A stretch of 64,000 bases of DNA from Escherichia coli. GTDB lineage: Bacteria > Pseudomonadota > Gammaproteobacteria > Enterobacterales > Enterobacteriaceae. Made by a program: the position numbers and the translations under genes. The DNA lies in NCBI RefSeq assembly GCF_044324785.1, contig NZ_CP172127.1; one strand, given 5' to 3'. Below the pieces are notes generated by a model. It ran no database searches. It worked only from the letters and a program-made list of their open reading frames with translations, and was not told where the DNA came from. Shown piece after piece: positions 1 through 63,239 of the stretch. Position 1 is the first letter of the stretch. Each line of letters opens with the position of its first letter.

Positions 1-300
1 GGGATTTTGATAACTCACGAATGCCGTACCTGTTACGGCATTGTTCATAACGTGGATCCCATCGGTAATGACACCTTCATGACGGAGGCGCTCTATAATG
101 AGTCGGCCAAAATCATCATTACCAACACATCCGAAGAAGATGGCCCGATGGGACAGTTTTGCCACCTGAGCAGCAAAAATTGCTGGCGCACCGCTGGGAA
201 ATGGCCCGATAAACTCCCCAGGCTGAGTGAATTTTTGATGCGGGTTGCGGGACAAAAACTCGGCCAGCAATTCGCCCATAGCGCAGATAGTTATTGTCAC
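1..300 (-). CDS. PfkB-family carbohydrate kinase, N-terminal part only (gene runs off the left edge)
   Basis: Minus-strand frame open from GTG ~300 or ATG 279 down to position 1; translation MGELLAEFL...GPFPSGAPAIF...GCVGNDDFG...AVTGTAFVSY follows the same pattern as the N-terminus of the PfkB kinase at 5835-6797. Absent from the ORF track because no stop lies in the window. Confidence 0.55.
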   Translation of the reverse strand, partial: MTITICAMGELLAEFLSRNPHQKFTQPGEFIGPFPSGAPAIFAAQVAKLSHRAIFFGCVGNDDFGRLIIERLRHEGVITDGIHVMNNAVTGTAFVSYQNP

Positions 301-310
301 AAAACCCCTC

Positions 311-1141
311 TCATTCCTGAAGCCTTTCGCGATTGGACCAGGTAAAGCACTCATTACTGGTATAAAGGATAACGAAATCAGCCGACTGCAATTGTTGCTG
401 ATATTGTTCGTTAATGCTGCGGCTGACGATCACATTTTCTGCTTGATGCAAATGCCCGATAGCAGCCGTTGATGGCGCAGGATCGGCGGCAACGATAACC
501 GTCTTATTCTGGGCATTATCGAAACAGAGCTGCCAGGCAGCGGCAAGTCTGGGAACGTTGATATTTAAAGTACCATCAGCATCCAGATGGCTGATTTCCA
601 GAATGCTATGTGTAATGGTGAAATGCTGAAGTGCCTGTTCGAGAGGTTTTCCGGCCAGTGCGGTGTCGGGGCGCAGCATTTCACTGCCAGCCAGTATTAT
701 TTCGCCATCAATAAACTGATTTGCCAGCAGCGCATGTTCGGGATCGTTGGTGATCAGACGCAGTTTTTTCACTTCGCTGAGCAAAGGAATGATCTTACGG
801 CAGATTGTCCCATGTCCAAGAAATAGCGTGTCACGATCGCGAATTAATCGTGCGCAATGTCGTGCTATTTCCATTTGTTGTGCCAGAGACAACGGCGCGA
901 TCGGTTGTATCGCTTCTGGTTCAGAGGAGAGTGGTGTCGCAATAGCACCGCCAAATGATCGCTTTAAATATCCCTGTTGCTCCAGATAACTGAGATCGCC
1001 GCGGATCGTCACGCCAGAGACACCAAGTTGCGCAGATAAGTCATCAACTTTGATTTCACCCTGGGCGGCAACAATTTCTGCAATTTTTAATCTGCGTTTC
1101 AGTAAGTTAGACGATTTTCTCGGCACGTTAACACTCTTCAT
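311..1141 (-). CDS. DeoR-family transcriptional regulator (sugar operon repressor type)
   Basis: 276-aa ORF with N-terminal helix-turn-helix (LKIAEIVAAQGEIKVDDLSAQLGVSGVTIRGDLSYLEQQG) and a DeoR-like C-terminal domain; divergent from the aldolase/ABC operon; AAAGG 5 nt upstream of the ATG. Confidence 0.7.
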   Translation of the reverse strand: MKSVNVPRKSSNLLKRRLKIAEIVAAQGEIKVDDLSAQLGVSGVTIRGDLSYLEQQGYLKRSFGGAIATPLSSEPEAIQPIAPLSLAQQMEIARHCARLIRDRDTLFLGHGTICRKIIPLLSEVKKLRLITNDPEHALLANQFIDGEIILAGSEMLRPDTALAGKPLEQALQHFTITHSILEISHLDADGTLNINVPRLAAAWQLCFDNAQNKTVIVAADPAPSTAAIGHLHQAENVIVSRSINEQYQQQLQSADFVILYTSNECFTWSNRERLQE

Positions 1142-1310
1142 TGGCCTTTAATGCGTAACACTATAGCCCCTTGTATTTTTCTTTGAAAGTTATCCTTCAA
1201 TAATATCGACAATTCGAAAAGAAAAGCATGGGCTAAAAATCGCAACGAAAATATCTTAATACATTGAAAAATAAATGAATAACTTAATATTTATGCAGAT
1301 GTACTATTGG

Positions 1311-1329
1311 TTTCACTTGCAAAGTGAAA
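1311..1329. promoter_or_regulatory. Candidate operator: palindrome TTTCACTT-gca-AAGTGAAA in the divergent promoter region
   Basis: Perfect 8-bp inverted repeat with 3-bp spacer read directly in the AT-rich regulator/aldolase intergenic region; function inferred. Confidence 0.3.
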
Positions 1330-1413
1330 AACAAATTAAGTTATTTTTTGTAAGTTATTTTGATGATATTCGACATGCATCACGCTTTTTGCCGCTTTTG
1401 CTGTGTTAGTTTG

Positions 1414-1428
1414 CTTTCAAAATGAAAG
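1414..1428. promoter_or_regulatory. Candidate operator: palindrome CTTTCA-aaa-TGAAAG sharing the TTTCA/TGAAA half-sites
   Basis: Second inverted repeat with the same half-site, ~55 bp upstream of the aldolase start; function inferred. Confidence 0.3.
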
Positions 1429-1455
1429 TGAAGATTCTGTTTCTTCATTTTGTAA

Positions 1456-2337
<882 letters not shown>

Positions 2338-2372
2338 TACGTTGTACCCTACAAAAACAATGAGGATTGTTT

Positions 2373-3263
2373 ATGAAAAATATTAAATTACTTGGTTCAG
2401 CTATGTTGGTGAGCCTGGCATTATTCTCGCAAAGTTCATTGGCAAAAGAGTATAAAATCGGTGCGTCATTATTAACACAGCAACATCCTTTCTATATTGA
2501 TCTTGCGAATGCCATGAAAGAAGAGGCAAAAAAAGACAATGTCAATTTAAGTGTCTCTATTGCCAATCAGGATTTAAACAAACAACTTTCTGATGTTGAG
2601 GATTTTATTACTAAAAAAGTGGATGCCATTATTATCTCTCCGGTTGATTCGAAAGGCGTCCAGGCGGCGATAATTAAAGCCGATAAGGCCGGTATTCCCG
2701 TTATCACCGTCGACGTCGCTGCGGAAGGCGTTCCGGTCGTATCGCATGTTGCGACCGATAACTACGCGGGAGGCGTTGAAGCAGGCAAGTTAATGGGCAA
2801 ACTTTTGAATGGCAAAGGTACTGTAGCCATTATTTCTTATCCGGCACTACAATCGGTGGTTGCGCGCGTTGATGGTTTTAAGAAAGGGTTAAGCGAGACA
2901 CCGGATATTAAAATTGTTGCTGAACAACCAGGTATAACGCGGGCTGAAGCGTTAACGACTGCGCAAAACATTATGCAGGCCAACGCCAACCTGAATGGTC
3001 TGTTTGGCTTTGGTGATGATGCGGCGTTGGCAGCGGTTATCGCAGCGAAATCTGCGCATAACGACAACATCAAAATCATTGGTTTTGACGGCATGAAAGA
3101 AGCGCGTGATGCCGTTGACAGTGAAAAAACGTTTGCGGCCGTGATTCGGCAATATCCCGATCAAATGGGGGCTAAAGCCATTGATGCTGCTGTTGATCAC
3201 CTCAATGGTAAACCGGTAGAAAAAATGATCCCGGTACAACCCGGCGTTTATACAGGTAAATAA
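2373..3263 (+). CDS. Periplasmic sugar-binding protein of an ABC transporter (RbsB-like)
   Basis: ORF track starts at TTG 2367; ATG at 2373 with GAGGA 7 nt upstream is the likelier start. Signal peptide MKNIKLLGSAMLVSLALFSQSSLA; type I periplasmic binding protein pattern; visibly AT-rich. Confidence 0.8.
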   Translation: MKNIKLLGSAMLVSLALFSQSSLAKEYKIGASLLTQQHPFYIDLANAMKEEAKKDNVNLSVSIANQDLNKQLSDVEDFITKKVDAIIISPVDSKGVQAAIIKADKAGIPVITVDVAAEGVPVVSHVATDNYAGGVEAGKLMGKLLNGKGTVAIISYPALQSVVARVDGFKKGLSETPDIKIVAEQPGITRAEALTTAQNIMQANANLNGLFGFGDDAALAAVIAAKSAHNDNIKIIGFDGMKEARDAVDSEKTFAAVIRQYPDQMGAKAIDAAVDHLNGKPVEKMIPVQPGVYTGK

Positions 3264-3280
3264 TAAACATCTTCATTTCA

Positions 3281-3307
3281 CAACAAAACGTTATCGACGT
3301 TTTGTTG
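3281..3307 (+). other. Intercistronic stem-loop between the binding-protein and ATPase genes
   Basis: Perfect 10-bp inverted repeat CAACAAAACG-ttatcga-CGTTTTGTTG, 17 bp upstream of the ATPase start. Confidence 0.45.
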
Positions 3308-3323
3308 TGACACCGAGGTCATT

Positions 3324-4823
3324 ATGACGGATGTTATTCTTGATGTTTCGCATATTGCGAAGACATTTGGTCATGTTCAGGCATTAAAAAATATTACACT
3401 CTCTTTACGTAAAGGGCGGGTGCATACTTTATTAGGCGAGAATGGTGCCGGTAAATCGACATTAATGAAAATACTCGCCGGTGTTTATCCGCCAACCCAG
3501 GGAACGATAACACTACGTGGTGAAACCATCACCATTAATAATCCGCAGCATTCTCGCCAGTTAGGGATTGCGATTATTTTTCAGGAACTGAGCCTGAGTA
3601 ATAATATGACCGTGGCGGAAAATATCTATGCCAATAATGAACCGCGACGTTTTGGCATTATTAATGATAAAAAAATGCTCGCAGATTGCCAGAATCTCCT
3701 CGCGGAACTGGGCATCCCTCTGGATCCGCTGGAAATGGTCGGCAATATGTCGATGGCACATAGGCAACTGGTAGAAATTGCCAAAGCCTTAAGCTATGCA
3801 GCGGATGTCGTGATTATGGATGAACCGACATCTTCGCTAAGTGATAATGAAGCAGAGATTCTGTTTAACATTATTGAGAAATTAAAGCAGCGAGGTTGTG
3901 CGGTTATTTATATCTCTCATCGCATGGATGAAATTATGCGGATTTCAGATGATATTTCGGTGATCCGCGACGGTGAGTATATCGCTACGCATGAAAAGAA
4001 AAACAGTGATATCCAGCATTTGATTGCCCAAATGGTTGGTCGGGAAATGAAAAATATTTGGCCAGCACGTCTTGGGGAAAAGCCGGATGAAAATGTTCCT
4101 GCAAAACTGGAAGTAAAAAACCTTTCCCATCCCTCGCTTTTTAAAGAGGTCAGTTTCGCTGTGCGTCCGGGGGAAGTCCTTGGATTTTTTGGCCTGGTGG
4201 GAGCCGGGCGTTCCGATGTGATGAAGGCGCTATTTGGCCTCGTTTCGTATCACGGAACTGTGTTGATTGATGGTAAGGAAGTCAGGATCGCTAATCCCAA
4301 ACAGGCTATTGATCATGGCATTGCTTTTGTGACCGAAAACCGCAAGGAAGAAGGGTTAGTGCTGATGCACGACGTCAATATGAACACGCACCATGTGGCG
4401 TTTCAATATAACGCTTCGCGGATGGGACTCATCAATCACCGACAAGAAGAGGCGAAGACGCTGCAATCTATTGCCAGAATGAACACTAAAGTGAGTTCTG
4501 TACATCAGGCAGTGGGAGCGCTGAGCGGCGGTAATCAACAGAAAATCGTGTTATCGAAGTGGCTGGAGAAAACTCCGCGTATTTTATTGCTCGATGAGCC
4601 AACGCGCGGAGTGGATGTCGGCGCAAAATTTGAAATCTATAACGTGATACGTCAACTGGCTGCGGCAGGGACAGCAATTATTCTGGTGTCCTCTGAACTG
4701 CCAGAAGTCATGGCACTTAGCGATCGTCTGGTGGTAATGCGTAATAAAACGATTGCCGATATTTATTCATGTGAAAATTTAACGCAGACACAGGTAATGA
4801 CCGCTGCAACAGGAGTACGTTAA
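3324..4823 (+). CDS. Sugar ABC transporter ATP-binding protein with two nucleotide-binding domains (RbsA/MglA-like)
   Basis: 499-aa ORF with two Walker A motifs (GENGAGKST and GLVGAGRS) and two LSGGxQQ-type signatures; AT-rich. Confidence 0.85.
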   Translation: MTDVILDVSHIAKTFGHVQALKNITLSLRKGRVHTLLGENGAGKSTLMKILAGVYPPTQGTITLRGETITINNPQHSRQLGIAIIFQELSLSNNMTVAENIYANNEPRRFGIINDKKMLADCQNLLAELGIPLDPLEMVGNMSMAHRQLVEIAKALSYAADVVIMDEPTSSLSDNEAEILFNIIEKLKQRGCAVIYISHRMDEIMRISDDISVIRDGEYIATHEKKNSDIQHLIAQMVGREMKNIWPARLGEKPDENVPAKLEVKNLSHPSLFKEVSFAVRPGEVLGFFGLVGAGRSDVMKALFGLVSYHGTVLIDGKEVRIANPKQAIDHGIAFVTENRKEEGLVLMHDVNMNTHHVAFQYNASRMGLINHRQEEAKTLQSIARMNTKVSSVHQAVGALSGGNQQKIVLSKWLEKTPRILLLDEPTRGVDVGAKFEIYNVIRQLAAAGTAIILVSSELPEVMALSDRLVVMRNKTIADIYSCENLTQTQVMTAATGVR

Positions 4824-5813
4824 ATGACAGAGAAAACTCTTGCCAGTCCGAAACCTTCGGAAATACCCATTGCAAATAATTTTAAAAAAGTCTTCAGGCA
4901 ATATGGCGGTATCCTCAGTGGAATGGTGGTGTTAATCATTCTGTTCAGTTTTATTAATGACAGTTTTTTTACTGCCAATAACATTACTAATATTATTCTT
5001 CAGGTTTCGATAATTGCAATTACCGCCTATGGAATGACTTATGTACTTTTGCTTGGCGATATTGATTTATCGGTCGGTTCAACCATTGCATTGATTGGCA
5101 CATTTGCTGCGCTTGGGGCTTCATGGGGAATTCCATTTATTTTATTGGTCCCATTATCCATTATTGCAGCCCTGGCTCTGGGGATGATAAATGGTGGCTT
5201 GACGGCTATAGCGGGTATCCCTTCGTTTATTGTCACCGTTGCTACTATGGGGATCTTCCGTGGTATCGCTTATATAGTGACCGATGGTATGCCCATCATG
5301 ATTAAAGATGATGCCTTTCTGGCGCTGGGGAATGGAGAATTTCTCTATATACCTATTCCAATCTGGATATTAATTATCTTATTGCTGATTAACCATTTCA
5401 TTCTTACTAAAACAACCTTTGGACGAAAAATTTATATCACTGGTGGTAATAAAGAAGCGGCAGTTTATTCAGGGATAAATGTCACCCGCTTGAAAATAAA
5501 AGTCTTTATGATTACAGCTGTGCTGGCAGGTATCAGCGGGATGATCCTCGCGTCACGCCTTTATTCCGGGCAACCGAATTCCGCGTTGAGCTACGAACTG
5601 GATGCTATTGCCGCGGCTGTACTGGGAGGCACCAGCCTGAACGGCGGCTATGGAACCGTGGTGGGGACGGTGATCGGCGCATTAACCATCGGCGTTATTA
5701 ATAATGGCATGAACTTAATGAATGTTCCCTATTTTTACCAGATGGTGGTTAAAGGATTAGTCATTCTTGTAGCCGTTTATTTTGACGTAAGAAATAAAAG
5801 AAAACGCAGCTAA
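4824..5813 (+). CDS. Sugar ABC transporter permease (RbsC/AraH-like)
   Basis: 329-aa hydrophobic ORF; ATG directly follows the ATPase TAA, implying translational coupling. Confidence 0.85.
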   Translation: MTEKTLASPKPSEIPIANNFKKVFRQYGGILSGMVVLIILFSFINDSFFTANNITNIILQVSIIAITAYGMTYVLLLGDIDLSVGSTIALIGTFAALGASWGIPFILLVPLSIIAALALGMINGGLTAIAGIPSFIVTVATMGIFRGIAYIVTDGMPIMIKDDAFLALGNGEFLYIPIPIWILIILLLINHFILTKTTFGRKIYITGGNKEAAVYSGINVTRLKIKVFMITAVLAGISGMILASRLYSGQPNSALSYELDAIAAAVLGGTSLNGGYGTVVGTVIGALTIGVINNGMNLMNVPYFYQMVVKGLVILVAVYFDVRNKRKRS

Positions 5814-5834
5814 TCATTTCAAGGAATTAATCAT

Positions 5835-6797
5835 ATGAGTAAGGTCTTCACAATTGGAGAAATTCTGGTTGAAATTATGGCGAGTAAAATCGGCCAGCCA
5901 TTTGATCAACCAGGTATCTGGAACGGCCCTTATCCCAGTGGTGCGCCCGCTATTTTTATCGACCAGGTGACACGTCTTGGCGTTCCGTGCGGCATCATTA
6001 GTTGTGTGGGGAATGATGGCTTTGGTGATATTAATATACATCGTCTGGCTGCTGACGGTGTGGATATCAGGGGGATTTCAGTCTTACCTCTGGAAGCTAC
6101 CGGGAGTGCCTTTGTTACTTATCATAACTCTGGCGATCGCGATTTTATTTTTAATATCAAGAATGCCGCTTGCGGTAAATTATCGGCGCAGCATGTTGAT
6201 GAAAATATTCTGAAGGACTGTACCCATTTTCATATTATGGGTTCATCCCTGTTTTCATTCCATATGGTAGACGCAGTAAAGAAAGCGGTAACCATTGTAA
6301 AGGAGAATGGTGGCGTTATTTCTTTCGACCCTAATATTCGGAAAGAGATGCTCGATATTCCAGAAATGCGTGACGCCCTCCACTTTGTTCTTGAGTTAAC
6401 AGATATCTATATGCCCAGCGAGGGAGAAGTGTTGCTCTTGTCGCCACACTCGACACCGGAGCGTGCAATCGCTGGTTTTCTTGAAGAAGGTGTTAAAGAG
6501 GTGATTGTGAAGCGCGGCAATCAAGGTGCCAGTTACTACTCCGCGAATGAGCAGTTTCATGTTGAGAGCTATCCGGTGGAAGAAGTTGACCCGACCGGTG
6601 CGGGAGACTGCTTTGGTGGCGCGTGGATTGCCTGCCGCCAGCTAGGGTTTGACGCCCATCGGGCATTACAATATGCCAACGCCTGCGGTGCACTGGCGGT
6701 AACCCGACGTGGTCCAATGGAGGGAACGTCTCGCCTTGCGGAAATCGAAGCGTTCATCCAGCGCCATGACATGTCCATTCGGGAAGCAGCACAATGA
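5835..6797 (+). CDS. PfkB-family sugar kinase (ribokinase/fructokinase-like)
   Basis: 320-aa ORF; AAGGA upstream; N-terminal glycine-rich motif and C-terminal DPTGAGDCFGGAW anion-hole/catalytic motif typical of the PfkB family. Confidence 0.8.
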   Translation: MSKVFTIGEILVEIMASKIGQPFDQPGIWNGPYPSGAPAIFIDQVTRLGVPCGIISCVGNDGFGDINIHRLAADGVDIRGISVLPLEATGSAFVTYHNSGDRDFIFNIKNAACGKLSAQHVDENILKDCTHFHIMGSSLFSFHMVDAVKKAVTIVKENGGVISFDPNIRKEMLDIPEMRDALHFVLELTDIYMPSEGEVLLLSPHSTPERAIAGFLEEGVKEVIVKRGNQGASYYSANEQFHVESYPVEEVDPTGAGDCFGGAWIACRQLGFDAHRALQYANACGALAVTRRGPMEGTSRLAEIEAFIQRHDMSIREAAQ

Positions 6798-7840
6798 AAA
6801 ACGAAATTTGGTCGTGGATTGGCGATCTCTCGCAGGTTGCCGGAATTAAACACTATGAGTTACGTAGTGGCAGAGCAAAGGGGACAGAAGCGTTTGATGT
6901 CCGTACCGGTGCGGGACTGGCATTTACGGTGGTAAAAGATCGCGCGCTGGATATTGCATGGGCCAGCTACAAGGACACTGCGCTCTCTTTTATCACCCCC
7001 AACGGCATTGTCGCCCCCGCTTTTTTTGAGTCTCAGGGCAACGGGTTTTTACGTAGCTTCTACGCGGGGTTACTGACTACCTGCGGACTTAGCTACATTG
7101 GCACGCCCTGTGAGGATGACGGAGAAACGCTGGGGTTACACGGGCGTTTGGCTGCGACTCCAGCAGAAGAGGTGGGGTATCGCACAGAACGGACCGACGA
7201 CGGCATTGAATTTGTCATCAATGGCAAAGTACGGGAAACACGATTGTTCGGTGAAAATCTGACGCTGGAAAGGACCATTCGCTGCCGCTATGGCGAAAAT
7301 GTGCTGCGCATTGAAGACAAGGTGACTAATCATGGTTTCACCCGCCAGCCGCTGCAAATTCTTTATCACTTTAATTACGGCTGGCCTTTATTATCGCCAC
7401 AGGCAGAAATTTTGCTGTCGGCTAAAAGCGTAACGCCACGAACTCCGCATGCGGCGGAAGGGATAGCCAGTCATCTGGAGATTTGTACCCCACAGCCCGG
7501 TTTTGACGAGCAGGTTTACTATCTCACGTTGAATAGTGACAGTCAGGGGATGAGTAAAGTTGCGCTGGTGAACGCTGAACTGGGGTGGGGAATTTACGAG
7601 AAATTCGACACCATGCAGCTACCCAACTTTATCCAGTGGAAAAATTTAGGCGCGGGTGAATATGTTATGGGGCTGGAGGTCAGCAATAGTTTTCCTGACG
7701 GTCGTGATAAAGAACGAGCGCAGGGGCGTCTGCCCTTTATAGAGCCAGGGGAAACAAAGACATACTGCTTTGAGCTGGGAATTGTTGATGGCGATGCTGA
7801 AATTAGCGCGTTGAAAGCGGAAATTGCAAGCTACCGTTAG
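6794..7840 (+). CDS. Aldose 1-epimerase (mutarotase)-like protein, uncharacterised
   Basis: 348-aa ORF overlapping the kinase stop by ATGA; contains LYHFNYGWP and GLEVSNSFPD...PGE motifs reminiscent of galactose mutarotase-fold proteins; assignment from motif recall only. Confidence 0.5.
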   Translation: MKNEIWSWIGDLSQVAGIKHYELRSGRAKGTEAFDVRTGAGLAFTVVKDRALDIAWASYKDTALSFITPNGIVAPAFFESQGNGFLRSFYAGLLTTCGLSYIGTPCEDDGETLGLHGRLAATPAEEVGYRTERTDDGIEFVINGKVRETRLFGENLTLERTIRCRYGENVLRIEDKVTNHGFTRQPLQILYHFNYGWPLLSPQAEILLSAKSVTPRTPHAAEGIASHLEICTPQPGFDEQVYYLTLNSDSQGMSKVALVNAELGWGIYEKFDTMQLPNFIQWKNLGAGEYVMGLEVSNSFPDGRDKERAQGRLPFIEPGETKTYCFELGIVDGDAEISALKAEIASYR

Positions 7841-7850
7841 CTAACGGCAA

Positions 7851-7886
7851 TAAAAACGCCGGGCAGCGTTAACAGGCCCGGCGTTG
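7851..7886 (-). terminator. Rho-independent terminator downstream of accC, shared with the convergent sugar operon
   Basis: 10-bp stem AACGCCGGGC/GCCCGGCGTT with 11-nt loop, followed on the minus strand by TTTTTATT. Confidence 0.5.
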
Positions 7887-7931
7887 ATTACGTTCTTTGC
7901 TAAGCGCGATGAAAACACCGCGCGTCACAAA

Positions 7932-9762: not shown

Positions 9763-10525
9763 GAGTGGGTTCCGTACTCTTTGTTTAGTGTGATTGTGAC
9801 AGGCGTTTCACCGCCGTCTGTAAAGCGTATGCCCCGACAGCTGTATGCATAGCGATAAATTCCAGCAGGCCGGGACGCCGGTCTATTTTGCCCCAGAGTG
9901 TCAATGTTAGACTTGACGGACATTGTGCAGCGATCTGCTGCTATCCTCCGGCAAAAAACAAAATATACCTTCGTTGCGCCAATGTCACCTTTTCCGCAGC
10001 GCAAAAACTGCGTCAGGGAGGACGAGGTCGCACATTATAACGATTTCGTAGCAATTGGCAGCTAAATACTGGTCTTATCAGGGAAGATAATCAACAGCTA
10101 ACATGTAAATAACCTTCAACACCGTGTAATTTGCAACAAGCCGCACAATTCACGAAATTAGCGCCATCATCGACGGAACTTCTTATAACGTAAGGCTAAA
10201 AGCTGTAAAGCCAGCCCTGCGAAGATGAGGGGCTGCAATGAGATAATCTTCACAGACCACAAATAATGTAGGGATGCCAGGATCGCGACAAGATCGACGA
10301 CATTACGCAGCGGTTGCTGGGGATTGCCCAATTTTCACTGCATCGTCTGGATAAATGTGAATGCTAAAGCACGCAAAATCAACCGCCTGACAATGCTCAG
10401 CATGAAATAGGTTTAACTGGTTAATTTGTAATCAAACAAAATCAGATTATTCCCCCCATTTTGCAGAAGGTAAACTGTTTTGTCAGGCGGCAGTACGGCT
10501 ATGTGATGCACTGCCGCGTGACAAT

Positions 10526-10554
10526 AAAAAAGCCGATTTGGTAGCAAAATCGGC
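10526..10554 (-). terminator. Rho-independent terminator after the 276-aa gene
   Basis: Stem GCCGAT(TTG)/(CAAA)ATCGGC followed on the minus strand by a T-run (plus-strand AAAAAA at 10526-10531); a second hairpin GCGGCAGT...ACTGCCGC lies at ~10487-10517. Confidence 0.5.
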
Positions 10555-10619
10555 TTCGGTGAGTTTGCAGCATTCATCACATACTCCGACAAGCTTTTTC
10601 AAGCATGACGGAGGTTGCG

Positions 10620-11450
10620 TTAATGCAAGGTTTCTACCCAGGGATAAAAGTGACCGTTACGGCGGATGAATATCTGTGTTGTCAGAGGATGGTCATCCTC
10701 ACGGAAGCATTGTTCTGTTAACTGTCGTAATGCGCTGAGATTTGCTGGCTGATCATTGTGGGTGAAAAACAGTTTTCCTCTGGAGGGAACTGTCACTAAC
10801 AGGTCGCCGCATTCAGGATCGGGTGATTGCACCCAAAGATCGTCAATGAGCATCAGACTGGGCTCATAAGTACCCCCTGCGGAGATAACGGCAACTTTTC
10901 CATCGTTTGCGCCGGTATCAACGATTTCAGCCGTAACTTCCGGCAATATTTGCTTCAAATTACTGATGGCTTGTTCGCGGTCAATGGTCACTTCGCAGCG
11001 CATCAGATAGCGCATGGTTTCGCTACCGTCTTCAGCAAACAGGATAATTAACTCATCGTTAAAGTCTTCCCAGGCAAAATCAAGCGAGGCGTTGAGGACC
11101 TCTGGATCAGACTCATACTGGCTAAGCTGTTGGCGAACGGTATCCAGCCAGGCTTTTTCTTTAATCACCGGGACAATACAGCGCCCGGTCGGCAGCATTT
11201 CTGCAAGCTGTTTCAGCATATCTGCAGCCACTTCTTCCAGCGGGTCTGGTGCGGCTTGATAACGTTTGTAAGCATCATCAAGGGTGATTTCCACCGTTTG
11301 GTGACCCGTATCAATGCGCATCAATTTATGGTCAGTCGAAATCATGACTTTCCAGTTTGGATGATGTTGTACAACTTCCTGACCAAGGTGTTCGACGAAA
11401 GCTGTCAGGCTAACCGCTTTTCCCGTTAACCGATTGAATAATGATTTCAA
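10620..11450 (-). CDS. Hypothetical protein, 276 aa, unknown function
   Basis: Long uninterrupted ORF; TTG start with GAGAGGG ~8 nt upstream, 37 bp downstream of acuI in the same orientation; own terminator; acidic, no predicted membrane segment; I cannot assign a family by recall. Confidence 0.6.
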   Translation of the reverse strand: MKSLFNRLTGKAVSLTAFVEHLGQEVVQHHPNWKVMISTDHKLMRIDTGHQTVEITLDDAYKRYQAAPDPLEEVAADMLKQLAEMLPTGRCIVPVIKEKAWLDTVRQQLSQYESDPEVLNASLDFAWEDFNDELIILFAEDGSETMRYLMRCEVTIDREQAISNLKQILPEVTAEIVDTGANDGKVAVISAGGTYEPSLMLIDDLWVQSPDPECGDLLVTVPSRGKLFFTHNDQPANLSALRQLTEQCFREDDHPLTTQIFIRRNGHFYPWVETLH

Positions 11451-11486
11451 AATGAGTTCCCTCTCTTATTAATCCTTGCTAAATGG

Positions 11487-46652: not shown

Positions 46653-46727
46653 ATTTATTAGCTCAGGTGTGACCTGACCCATCTTTGGCACAGAGCCAAA
46701 CCTGAACTGACGGACCGCTCTGTGCCA

Positions 46728-47069
46728 TTACCTGACGTTGTATTCTTTTATGTTAACACCCTTGATGCTGTATATACCTGTCCGCTTAATTCGCTTACCC
46801 TTTTTATTCGTAATAGTTGCTGTAAGTGTACTGCAGCGAATGGAATGACGTTCATCAATCACCAGCCGAATTGCTTCTGAAGCATCTTCCACCTCTAGAA
46901 GGTCGTGAGTCTTATTTAAGCCGAATGGAACAAGGTGGAAGGCAGTTTTTCCAGATGATTTTCTGGTTATTTTTACTGGATACAACACATCACCACTTTT
47001 ATGGATTAATTCAAGCTGTTCAATGTAAATCATAGCAACTTTCCTTCGTTTATCTGCATGAATATACAA
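46728..47069 (-). CDS. Orphan hypothetical protein in AT-rich DNA (113 aa from TTG; more likely 101 aa from the ATG at 47033)
   Basis: ORF in ~40% GC sequence; internal ATG at 47033 has AGGAAA 6 nt upstream; lysine-rich C-terminus; no family recognised; coding status unproven. Confidence 0.4.
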   Translation of the reverse strand: MYIHADKRRKVAMIYIEQLELIHKSGDVLYPVKITRKSSGKTAFHLVPFGLNKTHDLLEVEDASEAIRLVIDERHSIRCSTLTATITNKKGKRIKRTGIYSIKGVNIKEYNVR

Positions 47070-47120
47070 ACCGAAAATAGGAGATGCAATACAAAAGCTG
47101 TGGAAATATCAAACAGCCTC

Positions 47121-47378
47121 TCAATTTGGCAGGCAGCGTCTGCCAAATCTTTGCCGATGGAAATTCTGCAGACGGTGTCTGCAGAACTTCAACGTGTTGA
47201 TAAAAAGGTAAAAAAGCCTAATTTGGCGTAAGTTTTTTGCAGAGAACCCACGCTTATATCTTAGACTTAAATCCTTTGATAGTCGCTTGATTAGCTGCGC
47301 ACCATACGCAGCCCTAGCCTCGCCACCTTGTTCAAATTCGACAATCCGTCGGCCAATTTCCCAGTACGTCGCGGTCAT
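47121..47378 (-). pseudogene. yhcG: Frameshifted, truncated remnant of yhcG (DUF1016 PD-(D/E)XK nuclease-like)
   Basis: First ~57 codons (MTATYWEIGRRIVEFEQGGEARAAYGAQLIKRLSKDLSLRYKRGFSAKNLRQ) read like the YhcG N-terminus; the frame then degenerates and stops at 85 aa while a plausible continuation (LQTPSAEFPSAKIWQTLPAKL) is in another frame; the ~290 C-terminal codons of the 375-aa K-12 protein are absent. Confidence 0.6.
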
Positions 47379-47487
47379 TAACGCGTTAACACTACGTACC
47401 GTTTCCGTCCGGGCACTATCGAACTGGTGAATAATGTCTCCATGTACCCGCTTGTAGCCTAAATATCGCTACTTTATTTTTAACCAA

Positions 47488-48153
47488 TTAATAATATTTC
47501 AGTGTGATTTCCGCTGTGCCACTGAATTCCATCTTGTCCGTAACATTCAACTCCGACATCGCATTAATCGCAGAGCTGATTTTAAGTGGCACAGTTAGTG
47601 TGGTCAGATTTTGCGGTGAAGATGTACCAAATGCGTAAACGGTTGTGTTATCTGGGCTGACGATCTGCCAATTCCCAGTAGACTTTATCCATGTTGGATT
47701 GCTGCTATCAGTTGCTGAAAGTACAGAAACCCCTGTTCCGTTATCGACGGTAATCCCCATATTATCAATCATAATGGCCCATGCTCCGACCGGCTTATTT
47801 TTGAATAACCCCAGCCCCAGCAGGTCGCTTTGTGTTAATGCGCTACCGAGCGGAATTTTTGCCGCCATTGCAGTACCAGAATTGAGATCTTTAATAAGAA
47901 TCCCTGGGGCAGCGCTGCCTGGACAGCTAATTGATAGTTGGGTATTTTGATCTGGTAAGCGTGTGGCATCCTGGGTATTCATATTTGCAACAATATAGGT
48001 TCCAAGATTAATGACGCTATTCGTCAGGTTAATTGAACAGGAAGGCGGTTCCACCAACGCGCTAACATGGATGGTGATGTCTGCGGCACTGACATTGGTG
48101 GAACAGAAAAGCGTTATCAGGCCAATCAGCGATATTTTATTCATGACTATCAC
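47488..48153 (-). CDS. yhcF: Fimbrial-like protein (DUF1120)
   Basis: 221-aa ORF, GTG start overlapping the yhcE stop, signal peptide, C-terminus FSGTAEITLKYY. Confidence 0.75.
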   Translation of the reverse strand: MIVMNKISLIGLITLFCSTNVSAADITIHVSALVEPPSCSINLTNSVINLGTYIVANMNTQDATRLPDQNTQLSISCPGSAAPGILIKDLNSGTAMAAKIPLGSALTQSDLLGLGLFKNKPVGAWAIMIDNMGITVDNGTGVSVLSATDSSNPTWIKSTGNWQIVSPDNTTVYAFGTSSPQNLTTLTVPLKISSAINAMSELNVTDKMEFSGTAEITLKYY

Positions 48154-48722
48154 TCCGGTCGGCTATTCAGAGAAATGTTCAGGTCGTTGGTGAGCGTAAG
48201 TAAGTCTTGAGGGTTAATATCCTTGCCTGTGATCAATGGCAGTATCGCCAGTTGTACACTGGCCTGTGTTAGCGCCTGTTCGCGATCATGCTGCATAAAA
48301 GATATACCTTCCGAAGGTAATAAAACAATATTAGATGTACCGCCGTCTTGAAGTTGGTTGCTCACGGAAACACGAGACACAGAGGCACTCTGACCGCCTA
48401 TTGTCGGATTAGAGGCTTTGACTCGTATCACGCTCTGCTCGCCAAACTTAAATAGTGATTTTCCTTTATATGTCAATTTATTACCGTCAATCATGACGTG
48501 TACATAATGTGGTGAATCGCATTGAATATTCAGCGTAATATAGCGTTCTGGCAACGCAATACCATCCACCACCGTGGTATTGATGGTGTGTAATGTGCGT
48601 GAAGAACGATCAACCTTTCCCCAGGCAATATCCTGTTGGTTGGCTGTCACCTTACAGTTCTCGGCCAACGTAAATTGACTAAAAAAACAGGTTATTAGCA
48701 GAAGAGCCAAAGATGTTTTCAT
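48150..48722 (-). CDS. yhcE: Fimbrial-like protein, intact
   Basis: 190-aa uninterrupted ORF with signal peptide MKTSLALLLITCFFSQFTLA; no IS sequence present. Confidence 0.75.
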   Translation of the reverse strand: MKTSLALLLITCFFSQFTLAENCKVTANQQDIAWGKVDRSSRTLHTINTTVVDGIALPERYITLNIQCDSPHYVHVMIDGNKLTYKGKSLFKFGEQSVIRVKASNPTIGGQSASVSRVSVSNQLQDGGTSNIVLLPSEGISFMQHDREQALTQASVQLAILPLITGKDINPQDLLTLTNDLNISLNSRPE

Positions 48723-48734
48723 CTTGTTATTTCC

Positions 48735-51176
48735 TTATAAACAATGAGCTTGAACCGTTTCGTATACCACACTATCAGGCGCATCTTTGGGTAACGTATA
48801 TTGTAGATGGCATATTTTGCCATCAGGAAGAATAACCTTAAGAGTGTCCGTATTATTTTCAATGTTATTAATAAAGAAGGTGCCTTCTTCAACAACGGAG
48901 GTCAGATAGTTTCCCTGTGCGGTATGAACAGAACTATTCAGAGGTAAAAGGGCATTATTGAATCGCACATCCTGGAACATCACCCGACGTGCTGATAGCA
49001 CGGTGAAGGAAATACTTCCGACTGAATAACGCCCTTGTTTAACTTCTTGAGTAGCGTTTGCAATATCGGTTTTTTTAGCCAATGATTTGGGGTCAATTTC
49101 AACAATTGCCGTCTGGTACGGAGGTAAAACGGGCACAACAGCTTGCCCCCACCAGTCAGTCCATGCGGCACCCTGTGGCGTTTGAATTTGGACGCCAGCC
49201 TGTTTTTGGCTCAATTGGGCAATGGCCCAGGTATCAGCGATCCTGTCCGGGGAAAAGGTTATTCCATCCTTGTGCAGAGCGATCCCGCCATCAAGCGTGG
49301 CAGAAGAATAATGGCTGTCCGAGCCGCTTTGTCCCGCAGATAGTCCGAGGCGAGTATAATGTAGGTTAGTATTAAGGCCACCGCTGGCATTATTGCCACT
49401 ATCTTGGCTACGTTCATAGCTGACATAATAACTACTGTCTTTCAGGAAGGCGCCAGAAAGCGTTGAGCCAATGCGAGTATCATTATTTTCATGTCGCACC
49501 CAACTACTGGAATAATGGTTACCTAAAGGCACGTAAACAGTAAGGTTAAGTGAGTCTTCACTGTCATTTCCTTTTTCATGCCGGTAATAAAAATTGGTGG
49601 AGAAATATTTAAACTGCCTACTCCAGTTTATTGTGGTGTTAGTTGAATCACCGTCACGATAATAGCTTTTATTATTGGTATAACTTAGGCTAATTCCACC
49701 TAATAAATCGTGATACCAGGTCAGCGATCCAGTAAGCTCATTTTTATTGTAGGCATAGAATTTATTGTCATCTCCATAATCCCATGGTTGGTCGCTGATA
49801 TCGTCATTTTGCGTGGAATCAAGCAAATCGCGATAACCTCGCTCACTCCAGGTGTCGGTAACGGAAAAGCTTAAATTATCCAGCAGGTCTGCACCTAACG
49901 TGATCGCTGCCTGATTCCCTCGCTTATTATGATTATCATCGACCGCACTTCGGAGCTGAATAGAAGTTGACCAGTGAGTGAAAGGCTGAAAATCAACCCC
50001 GCCAGCAAAAGCATAATAGTTATTTGCGACGATGCCGCCTGTCGATAAAGTATAAGTATTAAAAACCGGCTGACTCCAGGCACCGCTTAACACCATCGGT
50101 TCGTCATCTTCTGCACCAACCTCGCGAACCCGGCCTACGGCAAAATTGTAGTTTGGTGTTCCTGTCACCGTTCGACGGAAAGAATCGCTAAAAACAGTAA
50201 ACTGGTCGCTACTCCCATCGCTTTCGATAACTGTCACATCCAGGTTACTGCTTTGATTCAGGACTGGAACGTTGGTTAAAGTAAATGGTCCCATTGGAGC
50301 CAAAGTAGAATAAATAAGCTGTTTATTTTGTCGGATTTCAATGCGTGCTTGCGATGATTTGACATTACCAGAAACCATCACATCATTACGTCTGTTTGGG
50401 GTTAGCGAAATATCAGGTTGTATCTGTACACCGTAAAGTGAGGCGCCGGAAAGTAGGGGGTTGGCAAGGTTGATCCCGCCTGCCTGCATATTTATTTTGC
50501 TTGCGGTGAAAGTATGTTCGGCATAAGTATAGAGATTGTCGAGATTGTGATCGCCATTAGATAAGGCAACCGAGGTACTATTACGTATTATCCAGTCGCC
50601 CATATTGATGCCGCTTTGTAGCGCAGCACTGGTATAATTATCATTATCGCCGTTATATTTATTAATATTATGCAATAATGAATAGTTTATAGTCGCCCCC
50701 GTCCCTCCAGTGGTGTAACCGCTAACCTCATCTGGGGATTGTAAGGCAATCGCCTCTGTCGGTAATAACACAAAGACTTTGTATTGCGCCGAATCGAAAT
50801 GTACCACCGCTGATGGATAGAGCATCTGCAATGTTTGGCAACGGTCGTCAGTTTCCGTTAAATTTTGTGGGATGATGACACCAGCTCTTTGCATCCAGTT
50901 AGTGTCAGCGCAAAGTTCGCCTTGTGGGTCAATAGTGATGGTAACATTGACATTTCGGTGACCATTAATGTCCATATTGACCTGTTGCGTGCCGGGAGGA
51001 AGACGTGCTTCTTTTGAAAAATAAGCCGCAACATTTTTATCTATACCAAATGAGCGTAACGCATCGCTATTGAAGTTAAGAGCGGTCTCCATCTCTTCCT
51101 GCGACGAAGCTGCCATAGCTATAATAGGAATAAAATGCAGCACTAGAAAGATCTTGTTGAGGGGAAAATATTTCAA
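48735..51176 (-). CDS. yhcD: Fimbrial outer-membrane usher
   Basis: 813-aa ORF with usher-type beta-barrel pattern and conserved C-terminal Cys pair; start may be at an internal Met. Confidence 0.9.
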   Translation of the reverse strand: MKYFPLNKIFLVLHFIPIIAMAASSQEEMETALNFNSDALRSFGIDKNVAAYFSKEARLPPGTQQVNMDINGHRNVNVTITIDPQGELCADTNWMQRAGVIIPQNLTETDDRCQTLQMLYPSAVVHFDSAQYKVFVLLPTEAIALQSPDEVSGYTTGGTGATINYSLLHNINKYNGDNDNYTSAALQSGINMGDWIIRNSTSVALSNGDHNLDNLYTYAEHTFTASKINMQAGGINLANPLLSGASLYGVQIQPDISLTPNRRNDVMVSGNVKSSQARIEIRQNKQLIYSTLAPMGPFTLTNVPVLNQSSNLDVTVIESDGSSDQFTVFSDSFRRTVTGTPNYNFAVGRVREVGAEDDEPMVLSGAWSQPVFNTYTLSTGGIVANNYYAFAGGVDFQPFTHWSTSIQLRSAVDDNHNKRGNQAAITLGADLLDNLSFSVTDTWSERGYRDLLDSTQNDDISDQPWDYGDDNKFYAYNKNELTGSLTWYHDLLGGISLSYTNNKSYYRDGDSTNTTINWSRQFKYFSTNFYYRHEKGNDSEDSLNLTVYVPLGNHYSSSWVRHENNDTRIGSTLSGAFLKDSSYYVSYERSQDSGNNASGGLNTNLHYTRLGLSAGQSGSDSHYSSATLDGGIALHKDGITFSPDRIADTWAIAQLSQKQAGVQIQTPQGAAWTDWWGQAVVPVLPPYQTAIVEIDPKSLAKKTDIANATQEVKQGRYSVGSISFTVLSARRVMFQDVRFNNALLPLNSSVHTAQGNYLTSVVEEGTFFINNIENNTDTLKVILPDGKICHLQYTLPKDAPDSVVYETVQAHCL

Positions 51177-51187
51177 GATAGCATTCC

Positions 51188-51889
51188 TTAATGATCAACA
51201 GGTAGATTTACACTGTTCACTTTTATTCCATAACGAGATAAAGGCTGTAGGATGACTTGATTAATTGGCAGCGAACTGGATAAAGTAGCCGTTAACGTTT
51301 CACCAGGTAAAATAAAGGTACGCAGCAGGTCTACCATTTTATTATTTTCAGGTATGATGATTTCAGGAGATAGACGAATCACGTAAGCGCCGGTATTTAC
51401 AACCTGTAAATTCGTACCTTGTTGTTTAAATTTTAAATCGCCCCATGGTTCTTTGTTTTTTTTAATGTTTTTTGGCGTGATGATGACAGGGATATCCTGT
51501 GTGTAAATAACATTCAGCTTAATGTTATCAGTTTTTTTTTCATCAGCATTTTTTGATGGAATACCACTAAATTGGGCTCGCATCATATGTTCTACCATAA
51601 GTGGTTTAGTCGTTTGTAATATGAAACGAACTTGTTGCCTTTTTCCCGATTCGACGCGTACGACAGGTTGGGTTGGTATTAGTTTAATACCACTGTTTTT
51701 TTCTTCATCAATCAGGCTGGTTCTGACATATAGCAATGCCGCATCGCTGCCAGTATTAGTCACATTAATACTGGCTTCGCCATCTTCCTCGTAGACTTCC
51801 AGTACTGGCGTTTCGGGCTGCATACCAGCGGTCCAACCATGGGAGGAGAAAAGACAGTAGCCGAAGAATAAATAACGTAAATATTTCAT
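51188..51889 (-). CDS. yhcA: Periplasmic fimbrial chaperone (PapD-like)
   Basis: 233-aa ORF with signal peptide and chaperone pattern. Confidence 0.9.
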   Translation of the reverse strand: MKYLRYLFFGYCLFSSHGWTAGMQPETPVLEVYEEDGEASINVTNTGSDAALLYVRTSLIDEEKNSGIKLIPTQPVVRVESGKRQQVRFILQTTKPLMVEHMMRAQFSGIPSKNADEKKTDNIKLNVIYTQDIPVIITPKNIKKNKEPWGDLKFKQQGTNLQVVNTGAYVIRLSPEIIIPENNKMVDLLRTFILPGETLTATLSSSLPINQVILQPLSRYGIKVNSVNLPVDH

Positions 51890-52007
51890 AAATTATAAAC
51901 GCATAATATAAAAAGAACGATACGCCCACAGAATGTGTAGGCGTTGTTTTATTAAATTATTCATGTATGTTATTTTTCAGTTAAAACTAAAAAATAACAG
52001 CAATAAA

Positions 52008-52754
52008 TTATTTATATTCCAGGAAGACTTCAAAGCCACCTGTATACTCTTCACGCCCGGTCACATCAGCGAAAGAGGCTTTATCCAGCAGCGCGACCGT
52101 TGTTTGTAGCGGGAAAACAACTGTTTTAGCTGGCGTGATGGAAGTCTTTCCTGGTTCTGCAACAGAAATACGACGAGTATTGGTTAAAGATACTGCACCA
52201 GCTGAATCTTTAGGCACGATGGTCCATGGCTGGTCAAGGTCGGTGCTATAGCTATAGATCAGCACTTTTTCAACTGGGGTAGGGTTTGCAACAGTGGTGA
52301 TTGTCGGGGTTCTGAATACAGTCCAGAATGCTCCAGCACCTTTGCCGCCAGCACGCAGTAGTGGGTTGATCTGATTTTTTGAAGAGCCGAGAGTTAAATC
52401 AACTGTGCGACCATCTGCAGTGTTAATGATGGTAGGATTGCCGTTAGAAAGCGTTTTTACTTTGCTTTCATCAGCGGCATTGAGATGATTAGTTCTTAGT
52501 GCAACATACATATCGGTCGGACAATCAACTTTAAGCTGACTTTCTTTGATCATCGGTAGGTTATTCGATGCATCGGTAAGTTGATCAACAGCCTGAGTAC
52601 CAAAATCCAGAGTGTTACCCTCAATAATACCCAGTGAACATCCCGAAGGGACTAAAAGACCTTTCACGGTAATGGTTGCATCCGCAGCCAGAGCTGAACC
52701 GGTGGTAATAGCCAGAATCGCTACGCTGAGCGTAAGCTTTTTAACTAATGACAT
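52008..52754 (-). CDS. gltF: Periplasmic DUF1120 protein GltF
   Basis: ORF track 52008-52790; signal peptide MSLVKKLTLSVAILAITTGSALA favours the start at 52754; C-terminus GGFEVFLEYK resembles yhcF. Confidence 0.7.
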   Translation of the reverse strand: MSLVKKLTLSVAILAITTGSALAADATITVKGLLVPSGCSLGIIEGNTLDFGTQAVDQLTDASNNLPMIKESQLKVDCPTDMYVALRTNHLNAADESKVKTLSNGNPTIINTADGRTVDLTLGSSKNQINPLLRAGGKGAGAFWTVFRTPTITTVANPTPVEKVLIYSYSTDLDQPWTIVPKDSAGAVSLTNTRRISVAEPGKTSITPAKTVVFPLQTTVALLDKASFADVTGREEYTGGFEVFLEYK

Positions 52755-53200
52755 GTTGTTAAATTCCATGTTAAGTAAATGTTGTATCAAGACGTGAAAA
52801 CATTGTTTTTAATAAAGCTTTGAGAGTATACAAAATATTTCTTTAAATAAATTTTAAAATATATATGTTTTATTTTTTACATAATTTATGTGAATTGTTT
52901 TTTTGTTATTTTGGGATCGGGTGTCACTTTTTAGGTGTTATTTATTCGATTTATGAATATTTACTTTAAAAAATCAGAATATATAAAGACAGTTTTTTCG
53001 GGGATTGGCTCGTATTGTAAGAGCTGAAATTGTTTACTCTGTGGATTCGAGGAAGAAAGGTACTAAGACAATTATTTGTCTTGGTTTGCCCATCTATAAT
53101 TGAAAATGCGTTACGAGTTGTGGAAGATGAAGATAGATGAGGTGAGGATCCAGCTCCCTGTCATCTGTTATGCTGTCAGGGAACCGGAAAGTGCTAGGGC

Positions 53201-63127: not shown

Positions 63128-63239
63128 CCCCGGCTAGACCGGGGTGCGCGAATACTGCGCCAACACCAGGGAAATCTTGGCTGCGCCGTAAATTATTATG
63201 ATGAGTTACAAGGGCACAGCACTGTTTTTCAGGCCGCAC
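63119..63239 (-). ncRNA. arcZ: ArcZ small regulatory RNA
   Basis: Minus-strand sequence GTGCGGCCTGAAAAACAGTGCTGTGCC...GGCGCAGTATTCGCGCACCCCGGTCTAGCCGGGGTCATTTTTT matches ArcZ as I recall it, including the terminator hairpin plus T-run; convergent with and overlapping the last codons of arcB. Confidence 0.85.

Follow-up and report, generated by a model that had tools for sequence, protein, structure and literature searches.

Positions 2373-5813 of the analysed window (the whole stretch of 64,000 nucleotides from Escherichia coli) encode tagABC, an ABC importer of the ribose type that belongs to the D-tagatose utilisation island already described in this species. Taking all the evidence together, it is very probable that this region represents tagABC of a tag island lying between yhdT and accC, that the GC mosaic perceived there is made of two added layers, and that the transporter and the enzyme genes have had one history. 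This reading differs from that of an initial annotation of the sequence, in which the AT-richness of the transporter genes was attributed either to their separate acquisition or to a recent arrival of the whole locus.

The tag island and its site

The D-tagatose island has been described as a group of eight genes, tagK-tagR and tagYABCDE, located in the yhdT-accC interval (Ha et al. 2022, PMC9720028; Park et al. 2025, PMC12226905). Seven of these genes are complete in the window, which also includes the 5' 279 nt of tagK, and tagK-tagR is divergent from tagYABCDE (Table 1); tagK, whose name is taken from PMC12226905, is present at full length in IAI39 and Nissle. The Pfam domains match the expectation for every gene of the island. 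In the window tagE is followed by accC, and in N3, IAI39 and Nissle the gene immediately to the left of tagK is yhdT. Sequence homologous to K-12 ends at the ATG of yhdT and resumes exactly at the stop of accC, so that the island replaces a short K-12 intergenic spacer. Positions 280-7900 are 100% identical to strain N3; beyond accB, comparison of the window with N3 showed 747 bp extra and, further on, a fimbrial operon.

Table 1. Features of the tag island in the window, with coordinates counted from its first nucleotide.
Feature	Position	Strand	Remarks
tagK, second PfkB sugar kinase (first 93 codons; runs off the window's left end)	1..279	-	Offset from N3 annotation (window -656..279)
tagR, DeoR-family repressor of the tag operon	311..1141	-	Pfam HTH_DeoR + DeoRC; GC 0.479, GC3 0.455
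Divergent control region	1142..1482	.	341 bp, equal to the published 341 bp; GC 0.317
CRP-like site (predicted)	~1369-1384		Read from sequence
Ptag -35 (predicted)	1386-1391		Read from sequence
Ptag -10 (predicted)	1407-1412		Read from sequence
Operator tagO1	1414-1432	+	Single match, 1 mismatch vs Nissle sequence
Operator tagO2	1438-1456	-	Single match, 1 mismatch vs Nissle sequence
tagY, class II tagatose-1,6-bisphosphate aldolase	1483..2337	+	Pfam F_bP_aldolase, E=3e-100; GC 0.483, GC3 0.446
tagA, periplasmic sugar-binding protein	2373..3263	+	Start of the AT-rich region; Pfam Peripla_BP_4; GC 0.444, GC3 0.411
Stable hairpin, tagA-tagB spacer	3278..3310	+	15-bp perfect stem; MFE -22.6 kcal/mol, z=-5.3
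tagB, ABC ATPase with two fused ABC domains	3324..4823	+	Pfam ABC_tran, two stretches; GC 0.451, GC3 0.440
tagC, ABC permease	4824..5813	+	End of the AT-rich region; Pfam BPD_transp_2; GC 0.417, GC1 only 0.442, GC3 0.424
tagD, D-tagatose kinase, PfkB family	5835..6797	+	Pfam PfkB; GC 0.488
tagE, DUF4432 / aldose-1-epimerase-like protein (predicted)	6794..7840	+	Pfam DUF4432, E=2e-104; GC 0.509, GC3 0.527
Right junction: 91-bp spacer with GC-rich hairpin at ~7855-7870, then accC stop	7841..7931	.	Terminator-like site, minus strand

The Nissle cluster is identical to the island of the window in site, in its eight genes and in their order and orientation. The two copies share 97.6% DNA identity over 7623 bp (179 mismatches in 7.6 kb for the window allele) and have in common the 341-bp control region, in which tagO1 and tagO2 differ by one mismatch each. 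According to the work carried out in Nissle (PMC9720028, PMC12226905), D-tagatose is bound by TagA in the periplasm, imported by TagBC and phosphorylated by TagD to tagatose-6-phosphate, which the host PfkA converts into tagatose-1,6-bisphosphate, and the latter is cleaved by TagY into DHAP and glyceraldehyde-3-phosphate; the operon is repressed by TagR at tagO1/tagO2 until tagatose is present. The repressor function of TagR has been demonstrated for Nissle (PMC12226905), and tagatose-inducible growth on D-tagatose has been reported only for this strain and for K-12 with the cloned cluster (PMC9720028, PMC12226905). By analogy with Nissle, the copy in the window would perform the same functions.

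The last step of this pathway, catalysed by a class II tagatose-1,6-bisphosphate aldolase, is shared with the galactitol and N-acetylgalactosamine pathways (GatY/GatZ, KbaY/KbaZ), TagY being 63.7% identical to GatY (PMC9720028). However, those pathways rely on PTS uptake, whereas the tag island combines an ABC importer with a kinase and, unlike the GatY/GatZ and KbaY/KbaZ systems, encodes no GatZ-like partner. The architecture of tagABC is that of RbsABC (a Peripla_BP_4 binding protein, an ATPase of ~500 aa with two ABC domains and a BPD_transp_2 permease), but the substrate of tagABC is D-tagatose as judged from the genetics of Nissle, and its genes lie within a tagatose catabolic operon. Importers of the RbsABC type belong to the CUT2 family of sugar ABC transporters. 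Homologues of tagABC are labelled 'ribose transport' in many databases. As for RNA elements, the hairpin of the tagA-tagB spacer is found at the same position in related clusters, with compensatory changes, and would probably form an intercistronic stem-loop in the mRNA; the sole match of an Rfam scan of the whole window was ArcZ, far from the island.

Base composition of the transporter genes

The initial annotation ascribed ~35-42% GC to the transporter genes. A dip does exist there, but it is smaller than that, since the GC content is 0.438 for 2373-5813 overall and 0.417-0.451 for the individual genes, as compared to 47.9-50.9% for the other island genes (tagR, tagY, tagD and tagE) and to a mean of 0.524 (sd 0.030) for 35 core genes of the window, which were re-anchored gene by gene by ORF search, with hpf left out. 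Values of 35-42% are reached only locally, over the 50 initial codons of tagA, tagB and tagC (0.35-0.37; tagA 0.35), the remainder of each gene being at 0.43-0.46, and 27% of the 400-bp windows of the region are at or below 42%. The AT run originally quoted, aaaaatattaaattacttgg, begins at position 2376, within the codons of the TagA signal peptide. The aldolase and kinase genes had been considered close to the core, but both are at ~48% GC and their GC3 (0.45-0.46) is below the core mean of 0.55; core-like values are confined to tagE and to the 130 C-terminal codons of tagD, the latter with GC 0.56 and GC3 0.55. The edges of the dip differ from those placed before. Nor is the dip unique in the window, since a fimbrial operon at ~47-53 kb contains a 3441-bp stretch with GC as low as 0.407.

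Although total GC sets tagABC apart, synonymous composition does not. When tagABC was compared with tagR, tagY and tagD, GC3 did not differ significantly (0.427 vs 0.455, p=0.22) and synonymous codon usage was homogeneous (chi2=35.3, df 41, p=0.72), whereas GC1 was clearly lower (0.527 vs 0.602, p=8e-4); with tagE included among the neighbours, the difference in GC3 had p=0.021. The 4.4-point GC gap is contributed by codon positions 1, 2 and 3 in proportions of 56%, 23% and 21%, respectively, so that it lies mainly in position 1, as a result of amino-acid composition. If the proteins are recoded with core codon usage, tagABC is already expected to be 2.5-4.5 points below the enzyme genes. After amino-acid correction, tagABC is 4.3-6.1 points below expectation, as compared to 3.0-4.2 points for tagR, tagY and tagD, and therefore a small residual difference persists. 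The CAI was 0.19-0.30 in all the island genes, without a transporter/enzyme split except for the permease; these values, calculated with Sharp-Li weights, are indicative only. The island as a whole, on the other hand, departs markedly from the core (GC3 ~0.44 vs 0.56; codon usage, p=1.6e-35).

The perceived mosaic is built in two layers. In the first, the DNA from tagR to about two thirds through tagD is AT-rich at synonymous sites (GC3 ~0.43-0.46; core ~0.55-0.56), with non-core codon usage. In the second, the amino-acid make-up of the three transporter proteins brings GC1 and GC2 down, and the genes also have especially AT-rich 5' ends, namely the signal-peptide codons in tagA and the beginnings of tagB and tagC. 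The modest GC dip in tagABC derives mostly from the amino-acid make-up of the transporter. Since the binding protein, the permease and the 5' ends of genes are intrinsically AT-rich, total GC estimated by eye exaggerates mosaicism, and GC3 and codon usage are the right measures.

These data bear directly on the proposal that tagABC entered on its own from a donor of lower GC and was placed next to catabolic genes that were either present already or came from elsewhere. The total GC of the transporter genes, 3-9 points under that of adjoining island genes, a corrected deficit 1-2 points beyond that of the neighbours, and the variable gene content of tag clusters among taxa would all be in line with such an event. 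Yet neither GC3 nor codon usage separates tagABC from tagR, tagY and tagD, and a search for GC3 change-points along the island found none at either edge of the cassette. The dip is also repeated in every orthologous cluster, whatever the GC of the host: in Trabulsiella, Serratia, Sodalis, Brevibacillus and Cardiobacterium (locus GC ~0.47-0.61) total GC decreases over the transporter and GC3 is not lower. Nucleotide identity to relatives gives a flat profile along the island, and neighbour-joining trees of the transporter and of the enzyme/regulator genes from nine Enterobacterales clusters are congruent, with five of six splits shared and the sole difference weakly supported, although a fine-scale conflict could escape simple distance trees of this kind. 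Finally, the tagD kinase accompanies the transporter in 80 of 80 related loci with a complete region, which makes the module boundary drawn around the transporter wrong. Separate arrival of the transporter is thus very improbable, and we infer that transporter and enzyme genes have had one history within Enterobacterales, having reached E. coli, or persisted in it, as a unit.

In deep time the assembly of the locus is modular, and the unit that is conserved comprises the transporter together with the kinase (tagABCD) rather than the transporter alone (see also PMC9720028). In alpha- and beta-proteobacteria tagABCD occurs without tagY, tagK or tagE, and tagY is absent from Klebsiella spallanzanii; this variable gene content indicates that parts of the locus were joined at different times. 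In clusters of the Sinorhizobium meliloti type, found in those proteobacteria, the genes for the binding protein, ATPase, permease and PfkB kinase are syntenic with those of the island (45-67% protein identity), but the class II aldolase and tagK are lacking, as is DUF4432 in most cases, and a tagatose-6-phosphate epimerase takes the place of tagE (PMC9720028). The GC3 of these clusters, 0.74-0.88, is in line with that of their hosts.

A composition step at the 3' end of tagD

The sole significant composition step in the island is a GC3 change-point at 6407-6500, in the 3' end of tagD (permutation p=0.006), with a GC3 of 0.43 to its left and of 0.55 to its right; within tagD, GC3 is 0.41 in the 190 N-terminal codons and 0.55 in the 130 C-terminal ones. 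It might be the case, with a probability somewhat short of even, that the true joint of the mosaic is found here, a GC-richer PfkB-DUF4432 unit, or DUF4432 alone, having joined an older tagR-tagYABCD in the ancestor of the Enterobacteriaceae version. In addition to the change-point itself, the GC3 of tagE differs from that of the remaining island (0.524 vs 0.439, p=0.003), and tagE is restricted to an Enterobacteriaceae subclade (E. coli, Escherichia E69, Superficieibacter, Enterobacter sp. ENT03 and K. spallanzanii), related clusters without it being found in Trabulsiella, Serratia, Erwinia, Sodalis, Budvicia and Gilliamella. Identity among tagE homologues falls abruptly from 81-86% to at most 57%, and at that level the few matches with a name are from Clostridiales, Oscillospiraceae, Bacteroidota and Spirochaetales, unlike the binding protein, whose homologues form a continuous identity series; the next-closest DUF4432 genes are likewise located directly 3' of a PfkB kinase. 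[quoted passage not shown] On the island tree, moreover, the distribution of tagE requires one gain and one loss, the latter in Trabulsiella. No special similarity was found between the C-terminal third of TagD and the PfkB partners of distant DUF4432 genes. A joint at this point could hold alongside the two-layer explanation of the dip.

Age and distribution of the island

A recent horizontal acquisition of the whole locus by E. coli was the other origin put forward in the initial annotation, and it is also the published inference. That the island is accessory and atypical was borne out. Of 5426 complete genomes, 1419 (26%) carry it at full length; according to the literature, 93% of B2 genomes and 73% of F genomes have it and it is rare elsewhere. 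Its GC3 is ~12 points under that of the core. Both a low G+C content (deviation of -4.9%) and the inference of horizontal transfer appear already in the 2022 paper (PMC9720028), the deviation being given in the Nissle papers for the whole cluster only, without a split by gene or codon position. Of the features of classical mobile islands, atypical composition and patchy distribution are thus found here, whereas an integrase, a tRNA and direct repeats are not: no integrase or mobility gene was detected among the eight genes or in the immediate flanks, no tRNA in a 14-kb scan of the island and its surroundings, and no repeat family spanning both island boundaries.

It is the recent date that did not hold. 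Pooled synonymous divergence of the island is close to that of its flanks in each pair of strains compared, being 0.070 vs 0.064 for Nissle-IAI39, 0.077 vs 0.054 for Nissle and the window, and 0.044 vs 0.030 for the window and IAI39. As this match covers B2, F and the strain of the window, the island appears to be about as old as the lineage split. In addition, Escherichia E69, Superficieibacter, Trabulsiella, K. spallanzanii and Serratia have the cluster at the same site, flanked by yhdT/panF and accC, and it adjoins accC/accB in Enterobacter ENT03, where the locus is cut on the left. The island tree largely tracks that of the flanks, with K. spallanzanii as the one conflict, and outside Escherichia the DNA identity of the closest copy is only ~77-79%. 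Dating the transfer through dS against other genera was precluded by saturation (>1.4 or undefined). All in all, a recent acquisition of the whole locus appears improbable, even if less so than separate arrival of the transporter. A different scenario, which we put forward tentatively and regard as rather doubtful in all its parts together, is that the tag island may have been settled in the yhdT-accC spacer of Enterobacterales for a long time, without a change of site, having been kept in E. coli B2 and F and repeatedly lost elsewhere, with the step at tagD-3'/tagE as the trace of an older PfkB-DUF4432 fusion.

The locus, its function and regulation, its low G+C content and its skew to phylogroup B2 are all published, so that the island is ordinary and already known, and the importance of the present results is small beyond a tidy annotation. 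They do bring a modest correction to the literature on the Nissle cluster, in which recent transfer is inferred, since divergence in step with the flanks and a site common to six genera point to an old island and fit old residence with loss, or exchange through recombination within the conserved flanks, better than a recent transfer. If old residence is true, the copy of the Escherichia branch would have stayed AT-rich at synonymous sites through a long residence, contrary to the expectation from simple amelioration.

Identity and organization of the locus

The locus is the D-tagatose utilisation cluster published for Escherichia coli Nissle 1917, where the accC-yhdT interval was reported to carry it as two divergent operons 341 bp apart (PMC9720028), whose genes were later named tagK, tagR, tagY, tagA, tagB, tagC, tagD and tagE (PMC12226905). 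The likeness comprises the site, the spacer length and the presence of operators tagO1 and tagO2, and a direct comparison with the Nissle chromosome rendered 97.6% identity over 7623 bp of the island. In complete genomes this eight-gene accessory block is placed between yhdT and accC, and in the window tagE is followed by accC and then accB. The window is E. coli chromosome, its best match being strain N3 (99.7% identity over the first 9.5 kb, 100% across the island). According to the published pathway, tagatose is imported by TagABC, tagatose-6-phosphate is made by TagD, and the 1,6-bisphosphate, produced by the host PfkA, is cleaved by TagY, TagR being a repressor that responds to tagatose.

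Features of the window and their GC content
Feature	Coordinates	Strand	GC	Remarks
PfkB kinase (tagK)	1-279	minus		cut by window start
DeoR regulator (tagR)	311-1141	minus	0.479
Spacer between divergent operons	1142-1482			exactly 341 bp
Operator tagO1	1414-1432			one mismatch to published Nissle operator
Operator tagO2	1438-1456			one mismatch to published Nissle operator
Class II aldolase (tagY)	1483-2337	plus	0.483
tagABC region overall	2373-5813	plus	0.438
Peripla_BP_4 sugar-binding protein (tagA)	2373-3263	plus	0.444
ABC ATPase (tagB)	3324-4823	plus	0.451	two ABC domains
BPD_transp_2 permease (tagC)	4824-5813	plus	0.417
Second PfkB kinase (tagD)	5835-6797	plus	0.488
DUF4432 / aldose-1-epimerase-like gene (tagE)	6794-7840	plus	0.509
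ORF in accB-yhdH/acuI spacer	10620-11450	minus		276 aa, no Pfam match
Usher of fimbrial operon	48735-51176	minus
PapD-like chaperone of fimbrial operon	51188-51889	minus
ArcZ sRNA, next to arcB	63132-63239	minus		Rfam RF00081, 120.8 bits
35 core genes of window			0.524 ± 0.030

The tagA-tagB spacer holds a very stable hairpin (3278-3310; 15-bp perfect stem, -22.6 kcal/mol, z=-5.3). Related clusters from other genera also have a hairpin in this position, with compensatory changes at the stem top in Escherichia E69, Superficieibacter and Enterobacter ENT03; the element is probably a stem-loop in the mRNA between the two cistrons that sets how much binding protein is made relative to the membrane components. 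Besides ArcZ, the Rfam search of the window rendered nothing. The spacer from accB to yhdH/acuI (9763-11486) is 747 bp longer than in N3 and IAI39; in its full-length form it occurs in 666 of 5426 complete genomes, whose annotation gives a hypothetical protein and a YedZ-like heme-binding subunit; K-12 carries the pseudogenes yrdF/yrdE there. On an E. coli plasmid contig (NZ_JBTZOT010000002.1, 10050-10904), the gene of a tagatose-bisphosphate aldolase, with 88% DNA identity to tagY, adjoins gatZ and a zinc dehydrogenase gene among IS1 fragments, so that a tagY-like aldolase is also found in an IS-rich, potentially mobile setting.

Composition of the transporter genes

The initial annotation had proposed that an AT-rich transporter cassette was acquired separately from the catabolic genes, or else that the locus as a whole was acquired horizontally and recently. 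The GC dip of tagABC is real but modest: the 35-42% GC estimated by eye was overstated (measured, ca. 44%), the edges were misplaced, and the aldolase and kinase, taken to be close to 50% GC, measured ca. 48%. The impression of very low GC came from the 5' ends of tagA, tagB and tagC, whose first 50 codons have 0.35-0.37 GC, with 0.43-0.46 in the remainder of each gene; the AT-rich run then quoted begins at 2376, within the tagA signal-peptide codons.

A codon-position comparison of tagABC with tagR, tagY and tagD rendered 0.527 vs 0.602 for GC1 (p=8e-4), 0.368 vs 0.398 for GC2 (p=0.18) and 0.427 vs 0.455 for GC3 (p=0.22), so that positions fixed by the amino acids supply roughly four fifths of the 4.4-point gap. 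When the proteins were recoded with the codon usage of the window core, predicted GC was 0.478-0.497 for tagABC vs 0.518-0.523 for the other island genes. Synonymous codon usage was homogeneous between the two groups (chi2=35.3, df 41, p=0.72), each being strongly unlike the core, from which the entire island differs with p=1.6e-35; CAI, an indicative measure here, was uniformly low in the island (0.19-0.30 vs a core mean of 0.39). A GC3 change-point scan detected no break at the cassette edges.

Related loci numbered 80 in a scan that took one genome per species. Among them, alpha-, beta- and gamma-proteobacteria as well as Brevibacillus keep a gene order of binding protein, ATPase, permease and kinase, which is joined by tagK, tagR and tagY only in Enterobacterales. 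In those of the examined clusters that had an aldolase or kinase for comparison, the transporter genes were generally a few GC points lower, with GC3 not lower, and in high-GC hosts the highest GC3 was often that of the permease. The dip is therefore a property of these protein families rather than the mark of a donor. Against Superficieibacter, Enterobacter ENT03, K. spallanzanii, Trabulsiella, Serratia and Budvicia, the E. coli island has a flat profile of DNA identity. Separate phylogenies, the check suggested in the initial annotation, also speak against separate acquisition: five of six splits are common to the neighbour-joining trees of tagA+tagB and of tagK+tagR+tagD, and the sole difference is weakly supported. 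There is, thus, no evidence for a separate arrival of the transporter.

A second block of low GC (38-45%, lower than tagABC) lies at ca. 46700-53000 and is a minus-strand chaperone-usher fimbrial operon, also including DUF1120 subunits, that is absent at the corresponding position in N3.

The step within tagD and the origin of tagE

The sole significant GC3 change-point of the island falls at ca. 6407-6500, inside tagD (permutation p=0.006), with GC3 of 0.43 to its left and 0.55 to its right; within tagD itself it is 0.41 over codons 1-190 and 0.55 over codons 191-320, and tagE has 0.52 vs 0.44 elsewhere in the island (p=0.003). It is conceivable, although we lean against it, that this step is an old joint and tagE a later addition. 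tagE has the narrowest distribution of all island genes, being confined among the 80 loci to one subclade of Enterobacteriaceae, and the identity of its homologues falls from 81-86% straight to 57% or less, where the few named ones belong to Clostridiales, Oscillospiraceae, Bacteroidota and Spirochaetales; the next-nearest copies, placed in other sugar clusters, likewise sit directly after a PfkB kinase. However, the step in tagD is also present in Trabulsiella and Erwinia clusters without tagE, and tagE codon usage remains unlike the core, both of which argue against a simple fusion.

DUF4432 genes directly follow PfkB-family kinases in unrelated sugar clusters (loci L086, 5410-7975, and L088, 990-3275), partnered by a mannitol dehydrogenase, or by a lyxose-isomerase-like gene and an ABC importer, and tagatose-type clusters of Pleomorphomonas (L044, L046, L051, L054, L057) carry a 28-30% identical DUF4432 ca. 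6 kb from the binding-protein gene. Such recurrence may point to a functional connection of DUF4432 with ketose kinases.

Insertion site and age of the island

The island takes the place of the entire 108-bp K-12 spacer, K-12 homology stopping precisely at the start codon of yhdT and the stop codon of accC, and no boundary repeat, tRNA or integrase was found for it. Pooled synonymous divergence of island vs flanks was 0.070 vs 0.064 for Nissle-IAI39, 0.077 vs 0.054 for Nissle-window and 0.044 vs 0.030 for window-IAI39; this match makes the island older than the split of the three lineages. Escherichia E69, Superficieibacter electus, three Trabulsiella genomes, Klebsiella spallanzanii and Serratia sp. 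H1w (among loci L005-L011 and L014) carry the cluster between yhdT/panF and accC, and in Enterobacter sp. ENT03, whose locus is cut on the left, it adjoins accC/accB; in Budvicia, Sodalis and Erwinia it is elsewhere or on short contigs. The island tree agrees with the flank tree, K. spallanzanii excepted, and against other genera synonymous sites are saturated and dN is within the range of the flanks. In E69 (CP089930.1, 'E. coli') the island is ca. 90% DNA-identical to that of the window (dS 0.39-0.68), some nearby core genes (dusB, fis, accB and accC) are 96-99% identical, and yhdH is 89% identical (dS 0.51), so that divergence is uneven along this neighbourhood.

The view of the whole locus as a recent horizontal acquisition holds as regards an accessory island of atypical codon usage, but not as regards its being recent, since divergence matches the flanks and several genera share the site. 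The atypical composition is an ordinary and known finding: Enterobacteriaceae clusters were reported to average 4.9% lower G+C than their genomes, with horizontal transfer inferred (PMC9720028, 2022). The data, which do not account for the low GC3 seen in the Escherichia-branch copy, are better matched by long residence and repeated losses, or by recombinational exchange within the conserved flanks, than by a recent import.
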